64,000 nucleotides of DNA from Cyclobacteriaceae bacterium (GCA_043750575.1 JAYVBH010000009.1:48664-112663), one strand, 5' to 3'. Positions 9,618 through 37,955 are shown, counted from the first letter of the stretch. Made by a program: numbers and translations. The notes: a model not told the origin generated them from the letters alone.

Positions 9618-9714
9618 GTCGATGGTCCATAGTCCATAGCAGGGGCTCCAATGGACTAAAGGGACGTACTTTTTATCGGCCATCGAGATGGACCATAGAC
9701 TATGTACTATCAAC
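9618..9714. repeat. Inverted heptamer-array cassette (GTCCATA family), gene-less
   Basis: Left gtcgatg-gtccata-gtccata-g; reverse complement of right arm gttgata-gtacata-gtctatg-gtccat; a GC-rich imperfect hairpin precedes it (~9590-9615). Confidence 0.7.
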
Positions 9715-9762
9715 TCCCCATCCGTATCTTCACGGCTTCAACGACAGCACACTCATCTTGAT

Positions 9763-10836
9763 ATGAAAATTGTTACCGTCCTCGGCGCGAGGCCTCAATT
9801 CATAAAGGCAGCCACAGTCTCCAGGGCCCTGACCAAAGCAGGCATTGCTGAGCGCATCGTCCATACAGGTCAACATTTCGACAAGAATATGTCGGACATC
9901 TTCTTCCGTGAAATGGAAATCCCAGCCGCACACTATAACCTTGAAATCAATAGCCTTGGGCATGGAGCCATGACCGGACGAATGCTGGAAAAGGTGGAGG
10001 AGGTACTTAATATAGAGAAGCCCGATGCGGTATTGGTTTACGGAGACACCAATTCCACACTGGCTGGCGCCCTTGCAGCCGCCAAACTCAGCATTCCAGT
10101 CGCCCACGTCGAGGCCGGTCTCCGCAGCTTCAACATGGCCATGCCAGAAGAAATCAATCGGATCCTCACTGACCGCATCAGTTCAATTCTATTCTGCCCC
10201 ACCACAACTGCTGTGAAGAATTTAAAAAAGGAAGGATTCGATAAATTTGATTGTCATATAGAACAACCTGGTGATGTCATGTTTGATGCACTCAAGTACT
10301 ATGGGAAGAAAGCAGAAGGCGTTTCCCGGGTACTGCAGAAGCAGAATCTCGCCGGAAAAGAATTTGTACTGGCTACCATCCACCGCGAAGAAAACACAAA
10401 CAATCCAAAGCGACTACTTGCTATCGTCGATGCACTGAACACCATCAACAAAACAGTTACTGTAGTCCTCCCCCTCCATCCGCGTACGCGCAGCTATCTG
10501 GACTCACACAAGATAAAGCTTGACGTCACCCTGCTTGACCCCGTCGGTTATTTTGATATGCTTATGCTTCTTCGCAATTGCCGAATGGTTTTCACGGATA
10601 GCGGCGGCCTGCAGAAGGAGGCCTACCTGTCGGCAAAGTTTTGTGTAACGCTGCGTGATCAGACAGAATGGACAGAGCTTTTGAAGACCGGTGCGAATGT
10701 GCTGGTGGGCGCAGACACGCGCAAGATTCTAGGTGCTTTCAGGAAGAATAGAAAGAAGGTGGTCGTTGTTAAACCGCTCTATGGTCGTGGAGATGCGGCA
10801 GATAAGATCGCAAAACGGTTGAAAAGGCTTGGTTAG
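9763..10836 (+). CDS. wecB: UDP-N-acetylglucosamine 2-epimerase (non-hydrolysing)
   Basis: MKIVTVLGARPQFIK, VHTGQH, VYGDTNSTLAG, HVEAGLRS, TDSGGLQKEA; start ATG 9763. Confidence 0.95.
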   Translation: MKIVTVLGARPQFIKAATVSRALTKAGIAERIVHTGQHFDKNMSDIFFREMEIPAAHYNLEINSLGHGAMTGRMLEKVEEVLNIEKPDAVLVYGDTNSTLAGALAAAKLSIPVAHVEAGLRSFNMAMPEEINRILTDRISSILFCPTTTAVKNLKKEGFDKFDCHIEQPGDVMFDALKYYGKKAEGVSRVLQKQNLAGKEFVLATIHREENTNNPKRLLAIVDALNTINKTVTVVLPLHPRTRSYLDSHKIKLDVTLLDPVGYFDMLMLLRNCRMVFTDSGGLQKEAYLSAKFCVTLRDQTEWTELLKTGANVLVGADTRKILGAFRKNRKKVVVVKPLYGRGDAADKIAKRLKRLG

Positions 10837-10888
10837 TGGGCAGTTCATTCTGTAGCTCAAAGCTTGCAGGCGTGAATGCGGAAAACTA

Positions 10889-10985
10889 AATTCAGGGCCA
10901 CAACGAACACAAAGAAGGGCACGACGATCACAAAGGGGAGATTAGACATTCGCCGTGCGCTTCATAGTTCTTTGTGGTCTGAATT
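10889..10985. repeat. Inverted CACAAAG-family cassette, gene-less
   Basis: aattcagggccacaacgaacacaaag...cacgacgatcacaaag / ctttgtggtctgaatt. Confidence 0.6.
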
Positions 10986-11012
10986 CCTTGAGACTTACTA
11001 TCTGATTGCTAC

Positions 11013-12080
11013 CTAATCTTTAATGTAAACCAACACATTCAGCCACTGGACTGGGTTTCGCGGATCGTTCGTATAAACAGTTATCGCCTTCTGCTGCGTC
11101 CCACCCCGATTCTGTGGCTTGAAGCGTATCTTGATCTGAGTTGAGTCTCCGGCGCGGAGACTTTGCTTTGCTGATTCCGCAGAAATGCAAGTGCAGTTTC
11201 CTTGAAGTGCTCTGATCTTCAGCTCTCGTTTGCCTTTGTTGATCAACATAACATTTCGTTCCAGAGAAACCCCGGGCGTATGCTGTCCCAGGTCTACACT
11301 TTGCTCCCGCAGCACCGCCTGTGGCGCTCTCATCATATCTTCCGCCGTCGGGGTTGGATAGAACTCCTCAAGCGAAGCGAATACAGAGATTGATTTGTTT
11401 TCCTCTCCGGCATCGCTGGTGGTGAATAGCACATTATCAGAAACAAATCCAAAGGTATTCTTCATCCTGGCATCGTAGATCACATTGATTACTCCCTTTT
11501 GATGAGGCTCAATTACGGCAGGCATTCCAATCCGCATATAGTCAGGTTTTTCAACACCCAGAAACCGAAGGGGTTCGTCTCCATCATTCATAACCGGAAA
11601 CTGCTTTTGAACAGGCTCTTTATTAATATAGGCTGTCCCCATACTGAACGATTTTGTTTTCAACTTGAGCTTGCCCATGGTAATCGGATAAAGGTCATCC
11701 CCATTCGAAAATACCACCTGGCCTTTGATTTGGAGAACGACAGGGTTTGGGTCTGCATCCGTTAAGAGCGTAAGCGTCTTATTGAAATATCCAGGTCTAC
11801 CTTTAGGATCAAAACTTGCCTTGACAAATCCTGTCTTCCCGGAAGCAACCGGTTCCTTGGACCATCCAGGCGTTGTGCATCCACACGAGGTAGTGACGTT
11901 CAGGATCTTGACAGGCCTGCCACTGTTGTTGGTGAAGACAAATTCATGATCTGCATTACCCCTGGCTTCGAGGACGTCACCGAAGTCATAAACCTTCTCC
12001 CGGAAGATGAGCGACTCCAGGGCTTGTGCACCCAGAAATTCAGGAATCAAAAGAATGGCAGCAAGGATCAGTCTCCGCAT
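11013..12080 (-). CDS. DUF1573 domain-containing exported protein (three Ig-like modules)
   Basis: Signal MRRLILAAILL; TSCGCTTPGWSKEPVASGK and GNCTCISA DUF1573-type motifs; start ATG 12080. Confidence 0.85.
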   Translation of the reverse strand: MRRLILAAILLIPEFLGAQALESLIFREKVYDFGDVLEARGNADHEFVFTNNSGRPVKILNVTTSCGCTTPGWSKEPVASGKTGFVKASFDPKGRPGYFNKTLTLLTDADPNPVVLQIKGQVVFSNGDDLYPITMGKLKLKTKSFSMGTAYINKEPVQKQFPVMNDGDEPLRFLGVEKPDYMRIGMPAVIEPHQKGVINVIYDARMKNTFGFVSDNVLFTTSDAGEENKSISVFASLEEFYPTPTAEDMMRAPQAVLREQSVDLGQHTPGVSLERNVMLINKGKRELKIRALQGNCTCISAESAKQSLRAGDSTQIKIRFKPQNRGGTQQKAITVYTNDPRNPVQWLNVLVYIKD

Positions 12081-12094
12081 AGAACTATTTAACG

Positions 12095-12102
12095 CAAAAA
12101 TA
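12095..12102 (-). promoter_or_regulatory. -7 element TATTTTTG
   Basis: TAnnTTTG match 14 nt upstream of the DUF1573 start. Confidence 0.6.
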
Positions 12103-12140
12103 AGGGGATTTGCGTTAACCCTGTTTTCTTTGCATCTAAT

Positions 12141-13115
12141 ATGGCAAGAATTCTCACCGGCATTCAAAGCAGCGGGCGGCCTCACCTGGGTAACCTGCTG
12201 GGTGCCATCATTCCGGGAATAGCGCTTTCCCGCAAGCCGGGCAACGACTCTTTGTTCTTCATTGCCGACCTTCACTCACTGACCACCATTCGTGACGCCG
12301 AATTGAGAAAACAGAACACCCTCGCAGTCGCTGCAGCCTGGATCGCTTTTGGTTTCGATACAAACAAGAATCTTCTCTACCGCCAAAGCCGTATCCCTGA
12401 AGTCTGCGAGCTGACCTGGTATTTGAGCTGCTTCACACCCTTTCCTATGCTTGCCAACTCGCATGCTTTCAAGGACAAGTCCGACCGGCTGGCCGATGTA
12501 AACGCGGGATTGTTCATTTACCCGGTCTTGATGGCTTCGGATATCATTATGTACGATGCCAATATTGTGCCTGTCGGCAAAGACCAGAAGCAGCACATGG
12601 AAATGACCCGCGACATCGCCACTTCATTCAACACCCAATTCGGCGAAACATTTGTCGTTCCGGAAGCACAGATTGACGACCGGGTAATGACGGTCCCTGG
12701 AACAGACGGGCAAAAGATGAGCAAGTCATCCAACAACATCATTGACATCCTCCTCACCGAAAAGGAGCTGAAGAAACAGGTCATGTCAATCATCACCGAC
12801 AGTACCCCGATGGAGGCCCCGAAAAACCCGGATACGGACACTGTGTTTGCGATTTACAAATTAGTGGCTACTGCAGAGCAAACGGCCGAGCTTCGAAAGA
12901 AATACCTGGCCGGAAATTTTGGGTACGGACATGCGAAGCAGGAGCTCTTGGGACTGCTCATTGATAAATACAAGGCTGAACGCGAGGCTTTTCAGAATCT
13001 CATGGCTAACCCCAAGGAAATAAACAGGAGACTGGAAGAGGGCGAAGCCCGAGCCCGGGTAATCGCGAGAGAAGTGTTGGGGAGAGTTAGAATCAAATTG
13101 GGATTCTCGGAGTAG
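12141..13115 (+). CDS. trpS: Tryptophan--tRNA ligase
   Basis: ILTGIQSSGRPHLGN (HIGH), VPVGKDQKQH, KMSKS. Confidence 0.97.
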   Translation: MARILTGIQSSGRPHLGNLLGAIIPGIALSRKPGNDSLFFIADLHSLTTIRDAELRKQNTLAVAAAWIAFGFDTNKNLLYRQSRIPEVCELTWYLSCFTPFPMLANSHAFKDKSDRLADVNAGLFIYPVLMASDIIMYDANIVPVGKDQKQHMEMTRDIATSFNTQFGETFVVPEAQIDDRVMTVPGTDGQKMSKSSNNIIDILLTEKELKKQVMSIITDSTPMEAPKNPDTDTVFAIYKLVATAEQTAELRKKYLAGNFGYGHAKQELLGLLIDKYKAEREAFQNLMANPKEINRRLEEGEARARVIAREVLGRVRIKLGFSE

Positions 13116-13128
13116 AAAGGCAAAGGTT

Positions 13129-13655
13129 GCCACAGATTTCACAGATTAGCACAGATTGTAAGGTCAGAATATCAACCTCTTGTATTCTAAGCTTTTTCGC
13201 CCAAAATTGACAAGTAAGCCGACTTCACACCCTGAAACCTTCAGGTAGTTGATAGTTTGAGCAATTTGATCATTGACGAGGCCACCTTCTACGGCCTTTA
13301 TTTCAAGAATTATCTTGTCCCTCACCACAAAGTCAGCATAGAACTTGTGCGGGAGGATTGAGTCTTTATACTTTATTGAGTATTGTACCTCTCTGCCGAA
13401 AGTAATTTCCTTTCGCATAAGTTCGAATTGAATTGCATCCTTGTAAACTATCTCGAGGAATCCCTTCCCGAGTGTACGGTGGACATCCATGCAAATCCCA
13501 ATCAAAACATAAGTCTCGTCTTTTAGAGGGAAGTTTATGTCAGTCGATTCAATCGCCATCGCACGCAAGTTCGCGCGATTTAAGCTTGCAACATTATGGT
13601 TAGCCTCCGGAATTCCTGACTAAAAAAATCTGTGCTAATCTGCGTAATCTGTGGC
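13129..13655. mobile_element. Putative mini-element: GxxExxY gene enclosed by 29-bp inverted CACAGATT-triplet arms
   Basis: Left GCCACAGATTTCACAGATTAGCACAGATT (13129-13157); right arm 13627-13655 reverse-complements to GCCACAGATTACGCAGATTAGCACAGATT (27/29 identical). Confidence 0.6.
13164..13559 (-). CDS. GxxExxY protein (PD-(D/E)XK nuclease superfamily)
   Basis: VHRTLGKGFLEIVY (GxxExxY), YADFVV..KIILEIKA, QTINYL, GLLVNFG; likely start ATG 13559. Confidence 0.95.
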   Translation of the reverse strand: MAIESTDINFPLKDETYVLIGICMDVHRTLGKGFLEIVYKDAIQFELMRKEITFGREVQYSIKYKDSILPHKFYADFVVRDKIILEIKAVEGGLVNDQIAQTINYLKVSGCEVGLLVNFGRKSLEYKRLIF

Positions 13656-13661
13656 CAGACT

Positions 13662-14069
13662 CTACTTAGCCGTCCACACAATCTGCTGCTTCTCGCTGCC
13701 GATGTTTAGAACGATACGGGGAGGATTGGGAAGAATGGCAAGCTTTGTGTCTTTGCCGGCATAGTCATCCATCTCAACGAAGACGCCTTCGGTGTTGGCA
13801 ACACTGTATTCGTTGTTGGCGCTGATCTGGTACTTTTTCGCGATGTAGGCGATGGGCACAAGCACATCGCTGTCGGGGCAGTACTCATCGTGAATATCCT
13901 GTAAGGCATGCTCCAAGTCATCGCCAAACGTCTCCTGGAAGTCGTCCTCCAAGTCATGAAGCTTCTCTTCGAGGTCATCATAGGCCGGATTGTTGTAATC
14001 AAGCTTGGCCAGTTCCTGCCGATTTTTGATGATTTCAAGAAGGGCTATATCCAGGGCTTTGACGTCCAT
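13662..14069 (-). CDS. Acidic hypothetical protein
   Basis: 135-aa ORF with host-like codon usage; no motif recognised. Confidence 0.75.
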   Translation of the reverse strand: MDVKALDIALLEIIKNRQELAKLDYNNPAYDDLEEKLHDLEDDFQETFGDDLEHALQDIHDEYCPDSDVLVPIAYIAKKYQISANNEYSVANTEGVFVEMDDYAGKDTKLAILPNPPRIVLNIGSEKQQIVWTAK

Positions 14070-14101
14070 ATGTGCGAATTTAGGGCAAGATTAGGGAAAA
14101 G

Positions 14102-14278
14102 AGCTACAAGCTGCAAGCTACAAGCTGCAAGCATGGCGTTGTGGTTGATTCAGACCAAGTTGTAAAGCCAACTGAAGCTATGTGGGACCTTCCTTTTGCC
14201 AAGTGCAAAGGCCCTGGCCACATGGCTAAGACTAGTCGGATTTGGTAGCCGCAAGCTTGCCGCTTGTAGCCTGTAGCC
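14102..14278. repeat. Inverted GCTACAA/GCTGCAA heptamer cassette, gene-less
   Basis: Left agctacaagctgcaagctacaagctgcaagc (14102-14132); right gcttgccgcttgtagcctgtagcc (14255-14278). Confidence 0.75.
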
Positions 14279-14340
14279 GGAAGCAACCTAGGTGACAATC
14301 CAAGCCGAATACGTAAATTTACCAAGCCAATTAATTTACT

Positions 14341-15435
14341 ATGAATAAGGACTTCCTACCCATCAATGGAACAGATCACATAGAATTCTATGTCGGGAAC
14401 GCCAAACAGGCTGCACTGTTTTACCAACACTGCTTCGGCTTTTCACTGGTTGCCTATGCAGGGCCTGAAACTGGAGTCCGGGACAGATCTTCCTATGTGT
14501 TGCAGCAAGACAAGATCCGCTTTGTGCTGACCACGTCATTGCAGCTTGGTTCAGAAATTGCCGAGCATGTTGACAGGCACGGAGATGGTGTCAAAGTTCT
14601 CGCGCTATGGGTTGATGATGCTACCAAATCATTTAATGAAACAGTAGTTCGCGGAGCGCATCCCGCCTTCGCGCCGCAGACAATGAAAGATGAGTTCGGC
14701 GAAGTCGTGATTGCCGCTATTCACACTTACGGTGAAACTCTCCACACGTTTGTGGAGCGGAAGAATTACAAAGGAGCCTTTCTCCCCGGCTACCGGGCGG
14801 TAAAGTCTACATTTCAGAATGTAGGCATCGGCCTCAAGTATGTTGACCATTGCGTTGGCAACGTTGAACTGGGGAAAATGAACACCTGGGTAGACTTCTA
14901 TGAAAAGGTTATGGGCTTCAGTCTCCTGCTGACGTTTGATGACAAGGATATCTCGACGGAATACAGCGCGCTGATGTCGAAGGTCGTATCCAACGGAAAC
15001 GGGTACATCAAGTTTCCGATCAACGAACCGGCCTCAGGAAAGAAAAAATCGCAGATTGAAGAGTACCTCGATTTCTATAAAGGCCCCGGTGTACAACACA
15101 TCGCCATCGCAACAGACGATATTGTCAAAACCGTTTCCGAATTGCGCAAGCGTGGGGTGGAATTCCTATATGTCCCGGATACCTATTACAAAGACATCCT
15201 TGACCGGGTCGGCAAGATCAACGAAAACCTGGATGACCTGAAGAAACAAAACATCCTGATCGACCGGGACGAGGAGGGCTATTTATTGCAGATCTTCACC
15301 AAGCCAATTCAGGATCGGCCGACTGTATTTTTCGAGATTATCGAGCGTAATGGCGCCAAATCTTTTGGTAAAGGAAATTTCAAGGCACTCTTCGAATCCA
15401 TCGAACGCGAACAAGCCCTACGCGGAAACTTATGA
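14341..15435 (+). CDS. hppD: 4-hydroxyphenylpyruvate dioxygenase
   Basis: DHCVGNV, KFPINEP, SQIEEY, QHIA, LLQIFTKP, FFEIIER, FGKGNFKALFESIE. Confidence 0.97.
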   Translation: MNKDFLPINGTDHIEFYVGNAKQAALFYQHCFGFSLVAYAGPETGVRDRSSYVLQQDKIRFVLTTSLQLGSEIAEHVDRHGDGVKVLALWVDDATKSFNETVVRGAHPAFAPQTMKDEFGEVVIAAIHTYGETLHTFVERKNYKGAFLPGYRAVKSTFQNVGIGLKYVDHCVGNVELGKMNTWVDFYEKVMGFSLLLTFDDKDISTEYSALMSKVVSNGNGYIKFPINEPASGKKKSQIEEYLDFYKGPGVQHIAIATDDIVKTVSELRKRGVEFLYVPDTYYKDILDRVGKINENLDDLKKQNILIDRDEEGYLLQIFTKPIQDRPTVFFEIIERNGAKSFGKGNFKALFESIEREQALRGNL

Positions 15436-15758
15436 CAAATACGCTGAACCAACTTCAGGCACTGACGCCTCGTGAAATCTTTCCTGGGTTCATGGGGCGG
15501 ATCATTCACTCCACAAACATGACCTTCGTTTACTGGGAGGTTAAGAAAGGGAGCCTTGTGCCGGTCCATTCTCATGTTCACGAACAAGTCGTAAACATGT
15601 TTGAGGGAGAAATTGAACTCACTGTTAGTGACAAGACACATGTGCTTAAGCCAGGGGCTGTGCTTATTATCCCTTCCCATGCGGTTCATTCTGGCAAGGC
15701 CCTGACCGACTGCAAGATTTTGGATGTATTCTCACCCGTTCGCGAAGATTACCGGTAA
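15432..15758 (+). CDS. Cupin domain protein
   Basis: HSHVHEQ and IPSHAVHSG metal-binding motifs, DVFSPVREDY. Confidence 0.88.
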   Translation: MTNTLNQLQALTPREIFPGFMGRIIHSTNMTFVYWEVKKGSLVPVHSHVHEQVVNMFEGEIELTVSDKTHVLKPGAVLIIPSHAVHSGKALTDCKILDVFSPVREDYR

Positions 15759-15772
15759 AACGACTACGACCT

Positions 15773-17506
15773 ATGATAAAGACGTCTGATCTACTTTCAC
15801 AATCGACGACCCGCGCAAAAGAGTGGCTGGCAAGTTCCATAGACGCGGAATCGAAGAAACAGGTGGAGGCACTTCTTGCCCGTGAAGATCCCAAGCTTCT
15901 GATTGACAGCTTTTACAAGACGTTGGAATTTGGAACCGGCGGACTCCGCGGCCTCATGGGCGTGGGGTCAAACTGCATCAACCAATACACCATTGGATCC
16001 GCCACCCAAGGACTCGCCAACTACCTGAAGAAGTCTTTTCCCAATGAAGTCATCCAGGTAGCCATCGCCTACGACTGCCGGAACAAGAGCAAATATTTCG
16101 CTGAAGTTACGGCCAATGTATTCTCGGCAAACGGAATCACGGTGCACATATTCCCAGAACTCCGACCGACTCCGCTCCTCTCTTTCGCGATCAGGCATCT
16201 GAAATGCCAATCCGGCGTTGTCATCACGGCATCGCACAACCCTAAAGAATATAATGGCTACAAGGCCTACTGGAACGATGGCGCTCAACTCGTCCCGCCC
16301 CATGACGCCAATGTTATTAAAGAAGTAAACGCCATCACCAGTTTTGATAAGGTCCGTTTCACTCCTGACAAGTCAAAAATAAAAACAATCGGTCCAGAGA
16401 TAGAGGAAGCGTACTATGAGCAAGTCAATAAGCTGATTCCCCGCAAGGACAGCATCAAGCGGCAAAGCCAAACCGCAATCGTCTATTCCAGTCTTCATGG
16501 ATCGGGGATTACGATGGTACCGGAGTGTCTGAAGCGATTGGGGTTTGAGAATGTCACTATTATCGAAGAGCAAAGGGTCCCGGATGGAAATTTTCCTACC
16601 GTTGCTTCTCCCAATCCGGAAGAAAGGCCGGCCATGGACCTCGCCCTGCGCAAAGCCACACTACTTGGCGCCGACCTGGTCATGGCGACCGACCCTGATG
16701 CCGACCGGGTAGGGATTGGCATCAAAAACAGAAACAATGAATTCTTTCTCCTGAACGGCAACCAGGCGCTCAGCCTGATGATGTGGTTCATCCTGAAGAA
16801 CCTCAAAGAGAAGAAGGATACCTACATCGCAAAGACCATTGTCACATCAGATTTTATCGACAAGATGGCCGAGCAACTGGGTGTGGAATGTATAAATACA
16901 CTTACCGGCTTCAAGTACATCGCAGAGCTCATCCGCGAAAATGAGGGCAAGAAGAAATTTATTGCCGCCGGCGAAGAGAGCTATGGGTACATGGTAGGCG
17001 ACTTTGTACGCGACAAGGATGCGGTATCCGCGTGCGCATTCTTTGCAGCAATGGTTGCCGCAGCGAAAGATGACGGTCAGAGTTTGTTTACCTGGATGGT
17101 TGAGATGTACAAGGAGTTCGGACTCTACAAAGAAGGGCTTGTCAACCTGGTACGTACAGGAGCCGCAGGGGCGCAACAAATCAAATACATGATGGAGCGG
17201 TACAGAACCAACCCGCCCCATGTGATTGCGGGTCAAAAGGTGATACGCGTCCTCGACTACCAGAGCAGTATTGAAAGGAATCTTCTCAATGGTCACGAGC
17301 GACCCATCAAACAGCCAAAATCCGATGTGCTTCAATTCCTTACCTGGGAAGGTGGAAAAATCTCAGTACGTCCTTCGGGAACCGAGCCCAAGATCAAATT
17401 CTACATCAGTGTCAACCTCAGGCTCACTGATCCCAGCAATTTTGAACTAGCCTTGCAGCATTTGGATGATAAGATTGAAGCGATTGAGAAAGACTTGCTT
17501 AGATGA
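15773..17506 (+). CDS. pgm: Phosphoglucomutase/phosphomannomutase (phospho-sugar mutase)
   Basis: FGTGGLRG, ITASHNP, DPDADR, GEESYG, RPSGTEPKIK. Confidence 0.93.
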   Translation: MIKTSDLLSQSTTRAKEWLASSIDAESKKQVEALLAREDPKLLIDSFYKTLEFGTGGLRGLMGVGSNCINQYTIGSATQGLANYLKKSFPNEVIQVAIAYDCRNKSKYFAEVTANVFSANGITVHIFPELRPTPLLSFAIRHLKCQSGVVITASHNPKEYNGYKAYWNDGAQLVPPHDANVIKEVNAITSFDKVRFTPDKSKIKTIGPEIEEAYYEQVNKLIPRKDSIKRQSQTAIVYSSLHGSGITMVPECLKRLGFENVTIIEEQRVPDGNFPTVASPNPEERPAMDLALRKATLLGADLVMATDPDADRVGIGIKNRNNEFFLLNGNQALSLMMWFILKNLKEKKDTYIAKTIVTSDFIDKMAEQLGVECINTLTGFKYIAELIRENEGKKKFIAAGEESYGYMVGDFVRDKDAVSACAFFAAMVAAAKDDGQSLFTWMVEMYKEFGLYKEGLVNLVRTGAAGAQQIKYMMERYRTNPPHVIAGQKVIRVLDYQSSIERNLLNGHERPIKQPKSDVLQFLTWEGGKISVRPSGTEPKIKFYISVNLRLTDPSNFELALQHLDDKIEAIEKDLLR

Positions 17507-17510
17507 AAGA

Positions 17511-17726
17511 AGGTTCAATAGTTCAAAGATCAAGATCAAAGTTCAAAGTTCAACAGTTCAAGGCTTGCCCCGACGTGGGAATTACCGGAAGTGAAATCGT
17601 CTGGGTCGGCAGGTGTTCAACTTTGGAAGTGAAAGAGCTATGCATTTTTGTCGGGGTTCAATAGTTCAGGGTTGAATAGTTTAAGGTCGAAAGTCTAAGG
17701 TTGAAGGTCGAAAGTCGAAAATGCAT
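17511..17726. repeat. Two direct arrays of GTTCAA/GTCGAA 7-8-mers with palindromic pieces
   Basis: gttcaatagttcaaagatcaagatcaaagttcaaagttcaacagttcaagg; gttcaatagttcagggttgaatagtttaaggtcgaaagtctaaggttgaaggtcgaaagtcgaaa; second array closed by atgcatttt/aaaatgcat. Confidence 0.7.
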
Positions 17727-17756
17727 AAAATAAAAACACATTAAACTCATTTGACC

Positions 17757-18209
17757 ATGAATCTCGCAACAGAATCCTTACTCGCGCTTTACACACGGGA
17801 CCTTGATAAGTTGGCAGAAGAACTGCGGCTTTATCCTTCAGAGGAAGCTGTGTGGAAGGTTAGCCCCGGCATTACGAATTCAGCTGGTAACCTGAGCCTG
17901 CACTTGTGTGGCAACCTACAGCATTTCATTGGAGGGATTCTTGGTGACTCCGGGTACAAGCGCAACCGGGAGGCCGAGTTCAGTTTAAAGGATATACCGA
18001 GGATAGAACTGCTCGCGGAAATTGAGAGAACCAAATCTTCACTCGCCAACACCCTGGCAATATTGACCCCTGATCAACTCCATGGCCAATATCCTGTTGA
18101 TGTTTTTGGGAGACCCATGACGACGATCTACTTTCTCATGCACCTCGCAACGCATTTGGGGTATCATTTGGGGCAGGTGAATTATCATCGGAGGTTGGTG
18201 CGCAAGTAA
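17757..18209 (+). CDS. DinB/DUF1572 family protein
   Basis: NSAGNLSLHLCGNLQHFIG, RNREAEF, HLATHLGYHLGQVNY. Confidence 0.88.
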   Translation: MNLATESLLALYTRDLDKLAEELRLYPSEEAVWKVSPGITNSAGNLSLHLCGNLQHFIGGILGDSGYKRNREAEFSLKDIPRIELLAEIERTKSSLANTLAILTPDQLHGQYPVDVFGRPMTTIYFLMHLATHLGYHLGQVNYHRRLVRK

Positions 18210-18235
18210 CCATTTTTGGTTTTCTGTTGGAGCGC

Positions 18236-18333
18236 GGGTACTCACCGCAAAGGCGCAAAGCCGCGAAGGACCGCGAAGAATCCTTAGCGGTACTTCGCGG
18301 CTTTGCCCCGGCCTTGTGCCGGGGTGGTTACTC
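18236..18333. repeat. CGCAAAG/CGCGAAG-family palindromic element, copy 1
   Basis: gggtactcaccgcaaaggcgcaaagccgcgaaggaccgcgaagaatccttagcggtacttcgcggctttg...gtggttactc. Confidence 0.75.
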
Positions 18334-19648
18334 GCTCTCCATTTGAAACCATACTCCCCGAATTCACTCCAACACAGTCTTCTGTGATTTGATCGATATG
18401 GATCAATTGCAACGCATTCACTTGCGCCTGCTCCACCGGCACCTTCACCCGCACATAGTTTTCGGTGAAACCGTGAATCATCCCATCTTCAATATCGTTC
18501 TCGAACAATACCGTACGGGTCGTGCCCACGTTCGTTTCATAGAATGCCCTGCGCTTCTTATCTGAAAGAATATGCAGCATGCGTGAACGTTCACTACGAA
18601 CATTCATCGGCACCGGGCTGGGGAGCGTGACGGCCAGCGTATTCTCGCGTTCGGAGTAGGTGAAGACATGCAGGTATGAAATATTGAGCTCGTTGAGGAA
18701 GGTGTAGGTCTCGAGGAACTCGTCGTTCGTCTCACCCGGGAATCCGACAATGACGTCAACACCAATGCACGCTTGGGGCATCTCCGACTTGATTCTCGCC
18801 ACCCGCTCTACGTACAATTCACGCTGATATCTCCGCCGCATCATCTTCAATATCTTATTGGAGCCAGACTGGAGGGGGATGTGGAAGTGTGGGACAAAAC
18901 GGTTGGACTGTGCCACAAACGCAATGATCTCGTTGGTCAGCAAGTTGGGTTCGATGGATGAAATCCTGAATCGCTCAATGCCTTCCACCTGGTCGAGTGC
19001 TTTGATAAGGTCGATGAACCGCTCCTTGCGCTCGCCGCCCTGTAGTCCGAAGTCGCCGGTGTTGACGCCGGTGAGGACGATCTCCCGCACGCCCGTCGCC
19101 GCGATCTCTTGGGCGGTCTTCACGATGTTGGCCACCGTATCACTGCGGCTCCCACCCCGGGCAAGAGGAATGGTGCAGAAGCTGCACGAGTAGTCACATC
19201 CATCCTGCACCTTGAGGAACGTCCGTGTACGGTCCTGCATCGAAAACGATGTGTGAAAGGTATTGACCTGATCGATGTCGCACGAATAGACCACCGGCTT
19301 CGGGGGCCGCACGAACCCATCAAGCAATTCCACCAGCCTGAACTTCTCATTCGCCCCCAACACCGCATCGACACCCGGGATAGCCGATATCGCCTCCGGC
19401 TTCAGCTGGGCATAGCACCCGATGATGGCCACATACGCATCCGGAGATATCGCCCGCGCATCACGCACGATCTTGTGGCACTTCTTATCCGCGTTTTCTG
19501 TAACGGAACAGGTGTTGATGATGAAGATATCCGGCGTATCCGCAAAGTCGACTTTCAAATACCCCTTCTCCTCGAACTTCCGGGAAATGGTGGAGGTTTC
19601 TGAGTAGTTCAGTTTGCAGCCGAGGGTGTAAAAAGCAACCTTCTTCAT
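18284..19648 (-). CDS. mtaB: tRNA t6A37 methylthiotransferase MtaB
   Basis: MKKVAFYTLGCKLNYSET, INTCSVT, radical SAM CDYSCSFC, ISSIEP, HFHIPLQSG; start ATG 19648. Confidence 0.94.
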   Translation of the reverse strand: MKKVAFYTLGCKLNYSETSTISRKFEEKGYLKVDFADTPDIFIINTCSVTENADKKCHKIVRDARAISPDAYVAIIGCYAQLKPEAISAIPGVDAVLGANEKFRLVELLDGFVRPPKPVVYSCDIDQVNTFHTSFSMQDRTRTFLKVQDGCDYSCSFCTIPLARGGSRSDTVANIVKTAQEIAATGVREIVLTGVNTGDFGLQGGERKERFIDLIKALDQVEGIERFRISSIEPNLLTNEIIAFVAQSNRFVPHFHIPLQSGSNKILKMMRRRYQRELYVERVARIKSEMPQACIGVDVIVGFPGETNDEFLETYTFLNELNISYLHVFTYSERENTLAVTLPSPVPMNVRSERSRMLHILSDKKRRAFYETNVGTTRTVLFENDIEDGMIHGFTENYVRVKVPVEQAQVNALQLIHIDQITEDCVGVNSGSMVSNGERVTTPAQGRGKAAKYR

Positions 19649-19656
19649 TGGGAGTG

Positions 19657-19664
19657 CAAAGATA
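19657..19664 (-). promoter_or_regulatory. -7 element TATCTTTG of mtaB
   Basis: Perfect TAnnTTTG 8 nt upstream of ATG. Confidence 0.7.
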
Positions 19665-19710
19665 AGAGGAAAGTGTGTTAAGGGCTTAGTGTAGTTGATC
19701 CCGATAGAGT

Positions 19711-19801
19711 GGGTAACCACCGCTAAGACGCAACGGCGCAAAGGTCCGCGAAGAATTTCTTTGCGGAACTCTGCGTCTCTGTGCCTTTGCAGTGGTAACC
19801 C
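19711..19801. repeat. CGCAAAG-family palindromic element, copy 2
   Basis: gggtaaccaccgctaagacgcaacggcgcaaaggtccgcgaagaatttctttgcggaactctgcgtctctgtgcctttgcagtggtaaccc; aligns to copy 1. Confidence 0.8.
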
Positions 19802-19827
19802 CCTCTCTCCACGAAGCCATCCCCGTG

Positions 19828-19896
19828 CTACTACTACCCCACTATCACCCCATCCCTCATCTCCAACTTCCTATCCGCCATATTGGCAAATTCCTG
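19828..19896 (-). pseudogene. Detached duplicate of the ABC-ATPase 3' end (QEFANMADRKLEMRDGVIVG then three TAG)
   Basis: 47-bp direct repeat 19850-19896 vs 19953-19999 with one synonymous mismatch, continuing in frame to TAG TAG TAG. Confidence 0.75.
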
Positions 19897-19918
19897 CCTA
19901 CGCCAAGGCTTCGGCAGG
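19893..19918. repeat. REP-like palindrome CCTGCCTACGCCAAGGCTTCGGCAGG
   Basis: CCTGCC/GGCAGG stem lying between the two duplicated gene ends. Confidence 0.65.
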
Positions 19919-19930
19919 TGAATCAACGAC

Positions 19931-20590: not shown

Positions 20591-20650
20591 CCTGCAATTT
20601 CTTGAAATAAAGGTTTAAAAAAAGTAGATTGCTTGCAAAACTTACCCTTT

Positions 20651-21862: not shown

Positions 21863-21920
21863 TAAGCGGTTTCCTTCTTGGGTTTATTTTGATAAATTGC
21901 TACAAAAAAGGGCTTTATTG

Positions 21921-22820: not shown

Positions 22821-22857
22821 TTCGTTGATTCGGTTATTTGCTGATTCGTTGATTGGA
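22821..22857. repeat. Octamer array TTCGTTGA directly after the stop codon
   Basis: ttcgttga ttcggtta tttgctga ttcgttga ttgg. Confidence 0.55.
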
Positions 22858-22969
22858 GGAACCCCTTCATAGTGGCGGCCATCTGGTTGGTAGTACCTGA
22901 TCGGTAGTCCATGAAACAGTAAACGACTGACTTATCGATAAAGAATCCCCAATAACGTAACGTCCTGGA

Positions 22970-25107: not shown

Positions 25108-25112
25108 TACGC

Positions 25113-32782: not shown

Positions 32783-32839
32783 GGCTCTAAAATACTTAAT
32801 TGTAATTTGTGATTGTGTATTCGGCCCGGATCAAGAAGG

Positions 32840-32877: not shown

Positions 32878-32899
32878 GATGGATGGTCAAAGGGATTTT

Positions 32900-33997: not shown

Positions 33998-34001
33998 GGG
34001 G

Positions 34002-34099
34002 GGAGTTAGGAGTTGGGTATTGGGTGTTGGGCGTTCGGTGTTGGGAGTTCGGTGTTCGGTGTTCGGTGTTCGGTGTTGGGTATTAGGCGTTAGGTGTTA
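34002..34099. repeat. 14 in-phase heptamers GGNRTTV filling the intergenic gap
   Basis: ggagtta ggagttg ggtattg ggtgttg ggcgttc ggtgttg ggagttc ggtgttc ggtgttc ggtgttc ggtgttg ggtatta ggcgtta ggtgtta. Confidence 0.92.
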
Positions 34100-34707
34100 G
34101 GATTTCCGCGGAAGGGTTGTTCCGTGAGTGAGATGTCTTTTCGGAAGGATAAAAGTAGCACAATGGTTTTAAGAAGAATGCGCAGGTCGAGGATGAAAGA
34201 TTGGTTATTCACGTATTCAACATCGAGCTCGAACTTCTTCTGCCATGAAATGCCATGCCGGCCATTCACCTGCGCCCAGCCGGTGATGCCGGGCTTCATG
34301 GTGTGCCTCCTTCGTTGCTCCTCCGAGTAAAGCGGAAGGTACTCGAGCGGTAACGGCCGGGGACCCACGACAGACATATCCCCCGTGAGAACATTCCAGA
34401 GCTGAGGTAGTTCATCGAGGCTTGTGGTGCGCAGAAAGGAGCCCATCCAGAATTTCCGCTCAGGCAACGGCAGGCTATCATCAGTCGCCAACGTTCTGAA
34501 CTTGTACAACGTGAACGGCTGACCATCCTTGCCCGTTCGCAGCTGTTTGAAGATCATTGGGAAATGGCGTGTGATCAAAAAGGCAAAAGCCGTAGCCAGG
34601 AATAATGGCGACAAGAGGATGATACCCATTGCGGCAGCTATCCGGTCAACGATTGGTTTAACGAAAGACACATATATTCCCGGCATCTGGCTCGAGGGCA
34701 ATGGCAT
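34090..34707 (-). CDS. Priming sugar transferase (PglC-like phosphoglycosyl transferase)
   Basis: KFRTL, LRTTSLDELPQLWNVL.GDMSVVGPRP, KPGITGWAQVNGR; alternative start 34686. Confidence 0.93.
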   Translation of the reverse strand: MPLPSSQMPGIYVSFVKPIVDRIAAAMGIILLSPLFLATAFAFLITRHFPMIFKQLRTGKDGQPFTLYKFRTLATDDSLPLPERKFWMGSFLRTTSLDELPQLWNVLTGDMSVVGPRPLPLEYLPLYSEEQRRRHTMKPGITGWAQVNGRHGISWQKKFELDVEYVNNQSFILDLRILLKTIVLLLSFRKDISLTEQPFRGNPNT

Positions 34708-34737
34708 GCAAATTACGAAAGTTCGGGAGGCTTATTC

Positions 34738-34763
34738 ACCGCAGAGTCGGAGAGACGCAGAGG
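34738..34763. repeat. Half CGCAGAG-type periodic element
   Basis: accgcagagtcggagagacgcagagg. Confidence 0.45.
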
Positions 34764-34767
34764 AGTA

Positions 34768-35066
34768 CCCTATGGAATGTCTCACCGGACGGCGTCTCGC
34801 GTTCCGGTGTCCCGCGGCAGCCGCACAAATGCACCGGACGGCGCCTCTACGTTCCGGCAGCCGCACAAAGGCATTTCATCAAGCCGCACACAACACCCTA
34901 TGGAATGTCTCACCAGACGGCGTCTCGCGTTCCGGTGTCCCGCGACAGCCGCACAAATGCACCGGACGGCGTCTCGCGTTCCGGTGTCCCGCAGCAGCCG
35001 CACAAATGCACCGGACGGCGTCTCGCGTTCCGGTGTCCCGCGGCAGCCGTACAAACGTATTTCATT
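34768..35066. repeat. Array of 49-bp hairpin units in two higher-order blocks
   Basis: Unit caccggacggcgtctcgcgttccggtgtcccgcggcagccgcacaaatg at 34783, 34832 (variant), 34911, 34960, 35009; leader ccctatggaatgtct at 34768 and 34896. Confidence 0.93.
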
Positions 35067-35067
35067 A

Positions 35068-36063
35068 TTACGCAGCGACACTATCGGATGAAGCGCCGGA
35101 ATTCTTGACTTGTCTAGCTACCCAACCTCTCACCGCTACGTAGACTAGAAAAAAAACAACCGTAGCCAGAACCGGGAGAAACACCTGCCTCTGGACTAGT
35201 GATCCCACGACAATCACGTTGAACATAACCTGAATACCCCCAAAGAGCAACGCAACCTGCCGGTGCGACCATTTCATTTCATTGGATAGGTATTGAAACA
35301 AATGCGCACGGTGAGGCGTAAAAATGTTTTCTCTTCTTCTGATCCGCAATACAATGGTGACGATCGAATCGGTACCATAAACCAGAAAAACCAAAGGCCA
35401 CAGCAAGTTGTGCGTCACGTGGATCAGCTGGAGCAGTATGAAGATCAACACAAAGGCAATCGTCACGCTCCCCACATCGCCGGCAAAGCATCGCGCCCGG
35501 ACGCGAAAATTGAAAAAGAGAAAGATCACTACAGCGATTGCCATGATGATCAGCAACGAAATATCCGTAAAGGGTTGATAGTAAATCTGAATGTAGCCAA
35601 ACGTTACCAGCGTGACCATGGCATATATCCCCGTAATCCCATTGATCCCGTCCATGAAATTGAACGCATTGAGCGTGCCGACACACATAACCACTGCGAG
35701 AATCAGCAAATATGCAGGCCAATGAATCGGCCAAAGTTGGGCGAACAAGAGCAACACAGCACACAGTTGCACGAGGAAGCGAACAAGGGGATTAAGCGAA
35801 ATGATGTCATCGAAGAAGCTGACCACAGCTATGATAAGCGTACCCGCTGCAAACCATGGCCAGGAAAATCCTGACTGAAGAAACCAAAAAACGATTGCCA
35901 CAAAGAAGATCACCCCTCCCCCTCGAATAACCGGCCTCATATGTGAACTCCGGTCATTTGGATGATCTACGATTCTGAATTTCAGGGCCACACGGAAATA
36001 CAAAAGCTCCGTGGCCAGGAGCCCTGCACCGATCGCCACAAATATCAGCAACTGACTATCCAT
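35068..36063 (-). CDS. MraY/WecA/WbpL-family UndP sugar-1-phosphate transferase
   Basis: DHPNDRSSH..PVIRGGG, SFFDD, NAFNFMDGINGI, FAGDVGS, HRAHLFQ. Confidence 0.92.
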   Translation of the reverse strand: MDSQLLIFVAIGAGLLATELLYFRVALKFRIVDHPNDRSSHMRPVIRGGGVIFFVAIVFWFLQSGFSWPWFAAGTLIIAVVSFFDDIISLNPLVRFLVQLCAVLLLFAQLWPIHWPAYLLILAVVMCVGTLNAFNFMDGINGITGIYAMVTLVTFGYIQIYYQPFTDISLLIIMAIAVVIFLFFNFRVRARCFAGDVGSVTIAFVLIFILLQLIHVTHNLLWPLVFLVYGTDSIVTIVLRIRRRENIFTPHRAHLFQYLSNEMKWSHRQVALLFGGIQVMFNVIVVGSLVQRQVFLPVLATVVFFLVYVAVRGWVARQVKNSGASSDSVAA

Positions 36064-36973
36064 TCATCGAACGTATTGTGCGTCTCAACCCTTCGCGCAT
36101 ATCCACAGGAAGTGGTCCTTCAAGGTACTGAAGCAATTTGGCGTTGGAGACTTTCATATCCTCCGTCAATTTAATCAGCACATCCTGCTTGCCTATGGCT
36201 GATGCAAAACTTTTAACCACTGCTGGCGGAAGATTCCAAATCCAGGGCTTTTTTCCCAGCACACCGCTGATTAATTCATAGAGCTCCCTTGTAGACAGAT
36301 ATCCATTATCCGCCAGATGAAAGATGCCCGAGGGTATGTCTTTGTACATGAAGGTTCGTATGATCGCAATCAAGTTCTCCATACTGAGAAAAGACCGTTG
36401 GTTATTGAATGTTCCAAACGGATAGGGCACCGGCATCCTGACGAATTTTAACAGTGCGTTTAGGTTACCCTTGTTGTCAGGGCCATGAATCATGCAAGGC
36501 CTGAAGATGTAGAAGCGCTTATCATCCGGAAGCGCTACAGAGAGCAAGTACTCCTCTGCCCTTCTCTTTGACTTCCCATATTCGGTTAAGGGCAATGCTT
36601 GCGCTGACTCATCTACTGGCTCGGGGGCTGTGTCCGCTACGGCCTTGATGGAACTGAAAAAAATAAATCGGGTTGCCCCGGATTCCCTGAACGCATCAAA
36701 AACAGATTTTGCATGATCTACATTCGCAGCCTGGTAATCAACTGCCGTATATTTTCCTTTGAGATCATGTGCAATGCCGGCAAGGTGAATAACCGAATCT
36801 ATGCCTGCATCGTCCAATGACCCGGCGCTTATATCGGAAAGCCATTGGACTGGAAGTTGTGCTACCGGATTACGGCTGTGGCCAAAAATTTGAATGCCCG
36901 TGGTCTCTTTAAAGGCATGAACCAGGTTCCTACCAATAAATCCTGAAATACCGGTAATAAGAATCTTCCTCAC
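36056..36973 (-). CDS. NAD-dependent epimerase/reductase (WbpV-like)
   Basis: TGISGFIG, IHLAGIAH, SSIKAV, YGKSK, GPDNKGNL, NQRSFLS. Confidence 0.88.
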   Translation of the reverse strand: MRKILITGISGFIGRNLVHAFKETTGIQIFGHSRNPVAQLPVQWLSDISAGSLDDAGIDSVIHLAGIAHDLKGKYTAVDYQAANVDHAKSVFDAFRESGATRFIFFSSIKAVADTAPEPVDESAQALPLTEYGKSKRRAEEYLLSVALPDDKRFYIFRPCMIHGPDNKGNLNALLKFVRMPVPYPFGTFNNQRSFLSMENLIAIIRTFMYKDIPSGIFHLADNGYLSTRELYELISGVLGKKPWIWNLPPAVVKSFASAIGKQDVLIKLTEDMKVSNAKLLQYLEGPLPVDMREGLRRTIRSMNG

Positions 36974-36986
36974 GCAGCTAATTGCA

Positions 36987-37730
36987 TCAAATTAACTCAA
37001 ACAATTTCCGAAAGTACTTGCTATACACCATGAACCCATTTGAGTAGATTCCATTTTCCTTGCAGGCCCTGAGAATTTCCCGATTGAGTATGATGTTACT
37101 CATCAGGCCTCGCGAACTTACTCCTCCCCTGCGCATATGAACCATCGTTAACGGCAGGTAGCGATACCTGAGCCGATTCACAAACAAGAACCTGATTAGT
37201 AATTCATAGTCTGCAGCAATGCGGTAATCGGTCTTGAAGAGGCCGATCTCCTCATAGAATTTCCTGCGTACAAAGAAGGTTGGATGGGCAGGCATGAAAC
37301 CCCAGGCGAATTTTTCTGGGTTCCATCGGGCGGAAGAATACCGCCGAACTACTTTTCCCAGATTCTGAGGATCAACAACGACCAGATCGCCAAAGACCGC
37401 ATCCACGGAAGGATCAGAAAATGCATCAGCGACGGAGGAAAGAATCTGCGGGGTGGCATAAAAATCATCTGAGTTGATGATGCCTACTACGTCCCCGGTG
37501 GCCAGGCGGATAGCCTTGTTCATCGCGTCATAAATGCCATGGTCGGGCTCACTGATCCAGCGTGTTACCACGTTGCCGGCGTTGCGGACAATATCCAGCG
37601 TTGAATCTTTGGATTGCCCGTCTACGACGATGTACTCAATGTTGTTGTGGGTTTGCTCCCGCACAGAGCGGATGGTATCACCGATGGTAGCTGCGGAATT
37701 AAAGGAAACGGTGAGGAGGGAAATCTTCAT
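36987..37730 (-). CDS. Glycosyltransferase family 2 (WcaE-like)
   Basis: EYIVVDGQSKD, SEPDHGIYDAMNK, INSDD, PAHPTFF, ADYEL. Confidence 0.92.
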   Translation of the reverse strand: MKISLLTVSFNSAATIGDTIRSVREQTHNNIEYIVVDGQSKDSTLDIVRNAGNVVTRWISEPDHGIYDAMNKAIRLATGDVVGIINSDDFYATPQILSSVADAFSDPSVDAVFGDLVVVDPQNLGKVVRRYSSARWNPEKFAWGFMPAHPTFFVRRKFYEEIGLFKTDYRIAADYELLIRFLFVNRLRYRYLPLTMVHMRRGGVSSRGLMSNIILNREILRACKENGIYSNGFMVYSKYFRKLFELI

Positions 37731-37743
37731 TCCGGAACGCGGC

Positions 37744-37955
37744 TAAATGCACTTTGCCACAGATTACACAGATTCACACAGATTATCGGATCAAATTTTT
37801 CTCGGCGTTCTTTGCGCATATTCCTCAGCGACCTCTGCGGTTAAATGCACTTTGCCACAGATTACACGGATTCACACAGATTATCGGATCAAATTCTTCT
37901 CGGCGTCCTTTGCGCCTATTCCTCAGCGGCTCTGCGGCTCTGCGGTTAAATGCAT
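37744..37955. repeat. Tandem 98/105-bp units, each a CACAGATT-triplet arm joined to a CTCTGCG-family arm
   Basis: taaatgca at 37744, 37842, 37947; GCCACAGATTACACAGATTCACACAGATT from 37757 and a 1-mismatch copy from 37855. Confidence 0.92.

Follow-up and report, generated by a model that had tools for sequence, protein, structure and literature searches.

Periodic hairpin cassettes with and without small genes in the intergenic DNA of a Cyclobacteriaceae genome

A stretch of DNA from a Cyclobacteriaceae bacterium (GCA_043750575.1, JAYVBH010000009.1:48664-112663; 64,000 nt, below called the window) contains, in its intergenic gaps, short periodic sequences built of 7-9-nt words, and one of these encloses a gene for a small nuclease of the GxxExxY family. 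Do these sequences form one class of elements, and how are they maintained and spread? All repeat alphabets listed by a sequence-only reading of the window are present where it placed them, and the layout that it described, a periodic arm followed by its reverse complement, is real. The sole gene-bearing cassette of the window is the GxxExxY one at 13164-13568. Comparison of genomes and metagenomes establishes the anatomy, conservation, orientation bias and insertion polymorphism of such cassettes. As to their nature, we give roughly even odds (a probability of about 0.5) to the following answer: the window elements are stem-loop and array insertions resembling the intervening sequences (IVSs) of rRNA, which lie outside rRNA and colonise intergenic DNA, with the 23S rRNA IVSs as their best-studied relatives.

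The GxxExxY cassette of the window

The enclosed open reading frame (ORF; 13164-13568, minus strand) encodes 134 aa and likely starts from the ATG at 13559. It matches TIGR04256 GxxExxY (E=2e-36, 124.9 bits, cut-off 35) and PF13366, PDDEXK_3 (E=3e-33, 115.1 bits, cut-off 22). Residues D79, E89 and K91 are invariant in an alignment of three GxxExxY sequences. In an alignment of 26 sequences, where the numbering is shifted by 3, both D76 and K88 are invariant, E86 is conserved to at least 90%, and the GxxExxY motif is invariant or almost so. The AlphaFold model has a pLDDT of 92.5, and the best PDB folds are Cas4 SSO0001, lambda exonuclease and Hjc. The protein is thus confidently modelled as a minimal PD-(D/E)XK nuclease. 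A sequence search of PDB with it produced zero matches.

The ORF is flanked by inverted arms. The stop-proximal arm (13129-13157) is GCC-CACAGATT x3, 29 nt long and 93% complementary to the start-proximal arm (13627-13655), AATCTGTG x3-GGC, which lies about 58-70 nt from the start codon. The entire cassette folds at z=-7.7; here and below, folding z-scores are relative to dinucleotide shuffles. In the source metagenome, the arm at 13129-13157 has double the depth of its flanks and coincides with breaks between assembly contigs.

The window belongs to an uncultured member of the Cytophagales, the nearest genomes being Cyclobacteriaceae and Fulvivirgaceae metagenome-assembled genomes (MAGs), Dawidia, Chryseosolibacter and Ohtaekwangia (HPPD at most 88% identical). 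Its sequence was detected in freshwater and sediment metagenomes. The gene order ACAD-wecB-DUF1573-trpS-h135-HPPD-PGM-DinB-MiaB-ABC-sucC-OMP is retained in about 30 genomes, and therefore each gap can be compared across orthologues (the loci compared are denoted by L and a number). The trpS/h135 gap, 0-60 nt in most genomes, contains a GxxExxY gene only in the window, L349 and L003. Arm copy number varies: the right arm in L003 has seven copies versus three. In L012 the same gap holds a gene-less 129-nt cassette with GCTACAAGCTGCAAG arms. The GxxExxY ORF is co-oriented with its upstream gene h135, and the h135 transcript is the one that would run into the cassette. The product of h135 (13662-14069) is an acidic protein of 135 aa that matches no family; the gene is divergent from HPPD and conserved in about 30 relatives.

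GxxExxY cassettes in distant bacteria

Eighty GxxExxY loci were collected from unrelated metagenomes, their proteins being 39-68% identical to that of the window; both flanks were available for 70 of them. Inverted arms with a score of at least 12 surround 46/70 of these genes, compared to 1/70 in the control. Nearly all these arms are made of CACAGATT/AATCTGTG words, with variants CACGGATT, CACTGATT, CGCAGATT and CACGAATT. Their outer ends are GCC.../...GGC, with words typically ending in ..GTGGC, and a second subgroup terminates in TGTCTGAA. Arrays of CACAGATT-type words are concentrated near the gene: 94 of 136 are found within 200 nt of a GxxExxY gene, and they are rare elsewhere. With spacers included, an arm match score of at least 16 was observed in 46% of cases within one cassette and in 2% between cassettes. 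No CGCAAAG-type arrays were found within GxxExxY loci.

The geometry is constant. The arm is about 29 nt (the median computed on 38 strong cases), the distance from the stop codon to the arm is 9 nt, and that from the arm to the start codon has a median of 32 nt, so that many cassettes have scarcely any room for an internal promoter. The gene is co-oriented with both neighbours in 42 of 49 cases, with gaps of about 80 nt. Related cassettes occupy many different sites. The outside flanks of the 38 strong cassettes, inspected by eye, are A-rich and revealed no target-site duplications next to the arms.

Four-helix-bundle cassettes

A second gene family, encoding four-helix-bundle (4HB, PF05635) proteins, has the same layout. 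Periodic inverted arms were found around 4HB genes at eight loci (L057, L087, L092, L148, L350-L353), a small sample. The genes of L057, L087, L092 and L148 belong to PF05635 or its relatives, and the L057 arms consist of GTGTTAA. For the L087 protein, four relatives from Maribellus, Flavivirga and a metagenome were looked up; all are encoded in the sense orientation between host genes, with GAC-N-GAT words upstream and the mirror image downstream; the background frequency of this word is 0.017 per 110 nt. In Flavivirga spongiicola (L352, 1501-1857) the cassette is inserted between thrB and thrC of the threonine operon. In Maribellus comscasis (L351, CP046401, 71-1854) a GxxExxY cassette and a 4HB cassette lie on either side of one DUF6807 gene, all co-oriented.

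The sequence-only reading had proposed a system of several gene families, and the GxxExxY and 4HB arms agree with this. It had also held that the property shared is periodicity and not sequence, which is not supported. Each gene family keeps its arm word down to about 40% protein identity, GxxExxY having CACAGATT and one 4HB subfamily GAC-N-GAT.

Recent movement of the GxxExxY cassette

Between the window and L349 (GCA_031384895.1), the cassette ORF is 98.7% identical, compared to 85% for trpS, 88% for h135, 84% for HPPD and 74% for DUF1573. In 100-nt windows the identity rises through 87, 91, 94, 96 and 97 to 98-99 in the cassette, and then falls to 96, 91 and 87, the decay spanning about 400 bp per side. 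Such a profile is that of a recombination tract with the cassette at its centre, as in homing with co-conversion; it was seen in one pair whose partner is a MAG contig, possibly a mosaic assembly. At the same site of L003, the cassette protein is 64% identical versus 80-87% in the flanks, and therefore the history of the cassette is uncoupled from that of the site. Within a second set of orthologues, 13 of 15 pairs show higher conservation in the cassette ORF than in the housekeeping gene upstream of it.

Arrays in related genomes

The window and 80 related loci comprise 1.43 Mb, of which 9% is intergenic according to simple ORF calls. Arrays scoring at least 40 are about 12 times denser in intergenic DNA (66 arrays, 0.52/kb) than in coding DNA (54 arrays, 0.041/kb), and shuffled sequence yields 1 intergenic and 22 coding arrays. 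At a score of 30, many Tandem Repeats Finder (TRF) matches appear in shuffles too. A reverse-complement partner (score at least 13) occurs within 1.5 kb of 22 of the 99 intergenic arrays; the controls, in which the partner is complement-only or reverse-only, gave 1 and 3 cases, respectively, and therefore the pairing exceeds chance, contrary to the outcome that would have refuted the sequence-only reading. Inverted arrays are over-represented in convergent gaps (10 of 19, whereas such gaps account for 20% of intergenic bases).

Within the window and the fetched loci, the words GCTACAAG, CGCAAAGG, GTCGATAG, GTTCAAAG and GTGTTAAG recur at non-orthologous sites of other genomes, and 47 of 112 arrays have words met only once. 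In 1.4 Mb there are more than 10 gene-less arrays for each gene-filled cassette. The presence/absence polymorphism that the sequence-only reading had suggested checking is clear at orthologous sites, and metagenomic strains vary by entire 7-nt units. Relative to the compact orthologous gaps, the periodic elements of the window are thus lineage-specific insertions with rapid turnover, whose word is retained among close relatives.

Gene-less hairpins of the window

Four hairpins of the window contain no gene. The GCTACAA/GCTGCAA cassette (14102-14284; arms 14103-14135 and 14252-14284, 33 nt, 79%, 116 nt between them) lies in the divergent promoter region of h135 and HPPD, has a loop without an ORF and folds at z=-4.6. 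This gap is about 90 nt in many relatives; compared with L002-L005, L009 and others, the window has gained about 185 nt here by insertion. A strongly diverged copy is present in L349 (56% identity versus 84-88% in the flanks), the word occurs at a different site in L012, and another hairpin, with GTCCACAG words, occupies the same position in L021.

The CGCAAAG/CGCGAAG hairpin (18246-18309; arms 18252-18278 and 18283-18309, 27 nt, 89%, 4-nt loop; z=-6.4/-6.0) lies between the convergent DinB and MiaB-like genes, its right arm overlapping the final codons of the MiaB-like ORF. L003 has an orthologous hairpin built on the same word, and L043 and L017 carry the word at other sites. A shorter CGCGAAG/CTTTGCG hairpin, followed by CTCTGCG/CTTTGCA words, is found upstream of the MiaB-like gene (19742-19800). 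It has a local 9-bp stem, and its z-score is not significant. This tract, and a further one at 34740-34762, had not been noted in the sequence-only reading.

A long imperfect CACAAAG hairpin (10889-10986; z=-5.1/-6.8) lies between the convergent wecB and DUF1573 genes. Its array (10894-10935) has a 21-nt period and is weakly periodic. The hairpin is missing from L003-L005 and from the closest relative L349, where the gap is 52 nt, and in a strain of metagenome X5 its right half is replaced. The GTCCATAG/GTCGATGG (GTCCATA) hairpin (9612-9712; z=-4.2) is upstream of wecB, and its array at 9625-9639 has only 2.1 copies. In L349, three tandem units of the GTCCATAG hairpin, about 115 nt each, are found at the same place, and the word family also occurs in L014 and L021. 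The hairpin is attached to wecB in both the window and L349 despite differing neighbours, which are a 248-aa protein and a glucose/sorbosone dehydrogenase in the window (7314-9567) and an ABC-F-type ATPase and a PemK toxin pair in L349 (7133-9665).

In the source metagenome, the GTCCATA, CACAAAG, GCTACAA and CGCAAAG hairpins have no depth excess and no alternative joints, and therefore look single-copy. The stem-plus-T-run pattern of a terminator (a short GC-rich stem, a 3-8-nt loop and a T-run) is present in no window hairpin; the 10 terminator-like sites of the region 9400-23000, fewer than the shuffle mean of 14.1, include none of the cassettes. A scan for sigma-70 promoters and terminators used a model that excludes Bacteroidota promoters and was uninformative.

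Direct arrays and other repeats

The direct arrays of the window, GTTCAA/GTCGAAA, TTCGTTGA and GGTGTTC, are real; none of them has an inverted partner or folds better than shuffled sequence. Two heptamer arrays on the plus strand, GTTCAAA (17513-17561) and GTCGAAA/GTCTAAG (17678-17720), form an insertion at the PGM-DinB operon junction, where the spacing is 244 nt compared to 0-14 nt or an overlap in most relatives. In L003 this gap has 47 nt with the same words, and in L043 it contains a CGCAAAGG hairpin. A 7-nt unit indel in 17513-17720 distinguishes metagenomic strains. The arrays bracket a 106-nt multi-copy element (17556-17661). This element has inverted ends CCCCGAC/GTCGGGG, and its depth in the source metagenome is 5-6 times that of the flanks; it lacks an Rfam match and recurs nowhere else in the window. 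Apart from it, the CACAGATT arms are multi-copy in this metagenome.

The TTCGTTGA/TGCTGATT array (22821-22856, plus strand) starts directly past the stop codon of the OMP gene, in a gap of 0-50 nt in most relatives. The GGTGTTC x12 array (34001-34098, minus strand; AACACCG on the transcribed strand) occupies a 92-nt gap between two co-oriented polysaccharide genes and is unstructured (minimum free energy -2.3 on the minus strand). Another gap (34708-35067), also between two polysaccharide genes, holds at 34780-35055 five copies (2+3) of a 49-bp unit with an internal hairpin CACCGGA..TCCGGTG. An ORF drawn over these units (34529-35143, plus strand) has no Pfam match.

According to profile scans of the window proteins, the region 6-41 kb encodes ordinary housekeeping and polysaccharide genes, and no transposase or RAYT (Y1-transposase) domain was found among the 39 proteins scanned. 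At gathering thresholds, Rfam gave zero matches and no rRNA over the whole window, and at permissive thresholds zero matches in 17480-17760; a tRNA scan of the window found none. In 42000-64000 the G+C content changes from about 0.49 to about 0.40 and the genes are densely packed on the minus strand; the few gaps of this region contain zero periodic arrays.

Gene-less copies of gene-linked words

Gene-less arms with the GxxExxY word, also absent from the sequence-only reading, occur within a 98-bp tandem duplication on the minus strand (37739-37939; arms 37758-37785 and 37856-37883). Each unit, read on this strand, has CCGCAGAG/GCGCAAAG words and then the AATCTGTG x3..GTGGC arm, with no gene, and a CTCTGCGG x3 array lies at 37922-37945, within the feature annotated at 37739-37945. 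The same composite, a CGCAAAG/CGCAGAG array, a spacer and a AATCTGTG array ending in GTGGC, is present in two unrelated viral contigs, L270 (about 1870-1930) and L288 (2786-2850), with the same order of the two alphabets. Thus different alphabets can form parts of one unit.

Gene-less CACAGATT hairpins or cassettes were observed in L090, L102 and L108, and contigs of the source metagenome link two CACAGATT arms via loops of 11-35 nt. For the 4HB family, a gene-less GTGTTAAG hairpin in L003 matches the 4HB cassette in L057. The sequence-only reading had suggested that gene-less cassettes are non-autonomous remnants or targets of a multi-family system of small nucleases or 4HB proteins. The first part is not supported: tblastn with 81 proteins revealed no coding traces of GxxExxY or 4HB genes in 354 intergenic gaps of related loci, and none in the window gaps, the queries being limited to these two protein subfamilies. 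As no GxxExxY or 4HB fragment was found in loops or gaps, decayed genes were dropped as a source of the gene-less hairpins. The second part, targets or non-autonomous partners, stands for the CACAGATT word only.

Scans of viral contigs with two gene-less words gave no match adjoining a GxxExxY or 4HB gene, the 4HB profile being built from four sequences. The scan with CGCAAAGGCGCAAAG returned many chance coding matches and gene-less hairpins, and that with GCTACAAGCTGCAAGC mainly something apparently different in kind, NNCAAGC arrays situated upstream of phage promoters. In marine viral contigs (L167, L168, L203, L213, L219 and other IMG/VR loci) these heptamer arrays stop exactly at a TTGACA..TATAAT-like promoter, and they are possibly a separate phage regulatory feature. 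[quoted passage not shown] Another small nuclease minigene with inverted flanks, a 97-aa GIY-YIG ORF between 24-nt palindromes (AGAGCGATGAATATTCATCGCTCT), was observed in L039 (7447-7740).

Possible mechanisms

If the elements are IVS-like insertions, the full form would consist of an arm of 2-7 tandem 7-9-nt words, a small gene (GxxExxY nuclease or 4HB) and the mirror arm. Such a cassette would be inserted sense-wise into a host transcription unit and transcribed by read-through. The two arms would pair into a stem of about 29 bp, a candidate substrate of a double-strand RNase of the RNase III type, and cutting would remove or insulate the insert, leaving the host genes functional. The arm word is family-specific and conserved, which implies sequence-specific recognition besides pairing, and the recognising factor is probably the protein encoded in the cassette. 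ORF-less hairpins, among them the four hairpins of the window and the solo CACAGATT arms, may be counterparts of the ORF-less rRNA IVSs and not decayed genes; they would be tolerated chiefly at the 3' ends of genes and evolve rapidly through slippage of units. Direct arrays could be single-armed versions or raw material. Spread between lineages may occur by homologous recombination along with the flanks, as in the one case of the window and L349.

Several observations weigh against this scheme. No gene-filled cassette with GTCCATA, CACAAAG, GCTACAA or CGCAAAG words was found in 1.7 Mb of loci and two viral-contig scans. Because of that, and because these hairpins look single-copy, the link of the four alphabets to the nuclease and 4HB genes is based on architecture and is unproven. 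The GCTACAA and GTCCATA hairpins lie in divergent promoter regions, not at 3' ends. The start codon of the window cassette is preceded by 58-70 nt, room for a promoter of its own, and both read-through and processing of the arms by an RNase III-type enzyme are putative. Among arm mismatches there is no significant bias towards G.U on the sense strand (23 vs 14, p=0.19), most mismatches being non-wobble; this speaks neither for nor against RNA pairing. Finally, pairing alone does not require a conserved word.

A rival reading is a mobile element acting on DNA. Here the arms would be terminal inverted repeats recognised by the GxxExxY nuclease, which would cut word-bearing gene-less hairpins or cruciforms; the gene would then be copied in by repair, as in homing, with the gene-less cassettes as targets or non-autonomous copies. 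This possibility, which we hold tentatively and with the odds against it, agrees with the IVS-like reading on expression, differs from it on spread, and is its serious rival or complement. In its favour are the conservation of the word with the gene over about 40% protein identity, the intact predicted catalytic D-E-K in a confidently modelled PD-(D/E)XK fold, and the occurrence of related cassettes at many different sites. The source metagenome has multiple copies of the CACAGATT arms and gene-less contigs of the form arm-loop-arm, and gene-less hairpins occur in other metagenomes. The cassette shared with L349 is above its flanks in identity (98.7%), with decay over about 400 bp per side that resembles a co-conversion tract, and in the second orthologous set the upstream housekeeping gene is the less conserved one in 13 of 15 pairs. 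However, this gradient comes from one pair and a MAG contig that may be a mosaic assembly. Moreover, no target-site duplications were seen at the 38 strong cassettes, and arms are absent from the empty orthologous sites, so that they must move together with the gene. The 4HB cassettes have the same architecture but encode no nuclease, and the GCTACAA, CGCAAAG, GTCCATA and CACAAAG arms look single-copy. A bolder version, in our opinion unlikely, is that the arm words are recognition sites of the enclosed protein throughout: GxxExxY genes, and 4HB genes by another route, would copy themselves into hairpins made of their own word, the hairpins of Bacteroidota, cyanobacteria and Geobacter would be landing pads, and the 23S IVS would be a special case. 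If true, this would be one large undescribed class of hairpin-homing minigenes, including the classical 23S rRNA IVS.

The arrays might also be made by the host independently of the small genes, as slippage-grown terminator or insulator hairpins or as arrays binding host proteins, with the small genes merely lodging there. The preference of inverted arrays for convergent gaps and the unit-slippage polymorphism fit this, as do the unique words of 47/112 arrays, the many direct arrays, the excess of gene-less arrays over gene-filled cassettes, and the CGCAAAG-type hairpins between viral-contig genes with no GxxExxY or 4HB gene nearby. Similar gene-less arrays have been published as putative regulator sites (PMC2700814; PMC4679880; bioRxiv 10.1101/2022.06.06.494920). 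Still, we find a host origin rather improbable: no window hairpin has the stem-plus-T-run pattern, several elements are insertions in operons or promoter regions that relatives lack, identical 15-nt words occur at non-orthologous sites of different genomes, and the association of gene and word is far too strong for chance lodging. As for low-complexity sequence with accidental inverted matches, the 2.1 copies of GTCCATA, the barely periodic CACAAAG and the many score-30 TRF matches in shuffles are what it would predict. It is contradicted by the enrichment, the pairing controls, the folding z-scores and the conservation of words between relatives, and we give it almost no credence.

The IVS-like reading matters for proteins that are very common, small and of no known function: relatives of GxxExxY (PF13366) and 4HB/23S_rRNA_IVP (PF05635) number at least 7,594 and 3,378, respectively, in seed-limited candidate sets. 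A literature search, itself incomplete, revealed no paper in which GxxExxY or 4HB genes outside rRNA are connected with mirror-image word arrays specific to the family. Heptamer arrays have been noted repeatedly, in Geobacter, Beggiatoaceae, cyanobacteria and Coxiella, and left unexplained. The present analysis connects them with genes that have family-specific mirror-image arrays, are sense-oriented in operons, and share the architecture and even the word of an rRNA IVS. It yields testable hypotheses, namely RNase III excision and recognition of the word by the protein, or homing, and also an annotation rule for spotting inserts inside operons, for example between thrB and thrC.

Comparison with known systems

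Among arrays without genes, the closest to the direct arrays of the window are TAACTGA heptamer direct repeats of Beggiatoaceae, Cyanobacteria and some Bacteroidetes, for which a translational regulator was proposed (MacGregor 2015, PMC4679880). They are tandem 7-nt intergenic units, often just upstream of starts, with several heptamers possible per gap, and vary in presence among close relatives with the same neighbourhood, as do the arrays at 34001 and 17513. The window arrays at 17513, 17678, 22821 and 34001 agree with the description of long heptamer direct repeats (tandem 7-nt, intergenic, variable presence). However, TAACTGA arrays are almost always direct, with one dominant word per genome and no enclosed gene. 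Cyanobacterial STRR heptamers were reportedly described by Mazel et al. in 1990. Heptamer repeats are also known in Nostoc promoters (bioRxiv 10.1101/2022.06.06.494920).

In Geobacter metallireducens, paired tandem-repeat sites were interpreted as IHF/HU 'global regulator binding sites' (Aklujkar et al. 2009, PMC2700814). These are opposite-strand pairs of 3-5 tandem 7-9-nt units (GTTGCTYN, TCTCCGTS[Y], MTYCTGA) at variable distance; they are intergenic, also within operons (proBA), and missing from the sister species (PMC2700814). They differ in forming multi-copy one-word families, whereas the window words are mostly single-copy, and no link to GxxExxY or 4HB genes or to an RNA stem was drawn.

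Miniature inverted-repeat transposable elements (MITEs), foldback elements and repetitive extragenic palindromes with their mosaic elements (REP/BIME) are likewise short intergenic inverted-repeat elements without a coding gene, and the CACAGATT arms are multi-copy as well. The arms of foldback elements also consist of tandem short units. Unlike MITEs, the 38 cassettes show no target-site duplication, and most window cassettes look single-copy. Homing endonucleases of the PD-(D/E)XK fold exist, such as I-Ssp6803I. The GxxExxY cassette resembles them in that a gene for a small predicted PD-(D/E)XK nuclease resides in an element that it could propagate, with cassette identity above that of the flanks and a decaying gradient in one pair (window vs L349). 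It differs in lacking an intron or intein context and in that the arms travel with the gene; the 4HB cassettes have no nuclease, and target cleavage is putative here. In a survey of PD-(D/E)XK families the function of PDDEXK_3 is listed as unknown (PMC3424549).

The best counterpart is the IVS of 23S rRNA. In Coxiella burnetii, the IVS with a 4HB (S23p) ORF has a 28-bp terminal stem with two or three tandem GACAGAT heptamers, their number being strain-variable, and RNase III cuts in the stem at the first repeat (PMC4990558). The window cassettes lie between protein genes or inside operons, and not in helix 25/45 of 23S rRNA. The window ORF encodes a PD-(D/E)XK nuclease (PF13366/TIGR04256) and not S23p/4HB (PF05635), and the gene-less hairpins of the window use other words; cutting by RNase III is known for the Coxiella IVS. 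On the other hand, both have a small ORF in the loop of a terminal stem of about 28-29 bp, with arms of tandem heptamers whose copy number varies between strains, and both are sense insertions in a host transcript. Both occur with an ORF, as do the IVSs of Coxiella and Leptospira, and without one, as in Salmonella and Campylobacter. The word GAC-N-GAT surrounds the Bacteroidota 4HB genes, and a one-base variant, CACAGAT-T, surrounds the GxxExxY genes. Given the stem and the GACAGAT heptamers of Coxiella, the Bacteroidota 4HB cassettes share both architecture and word with the classical IVS.

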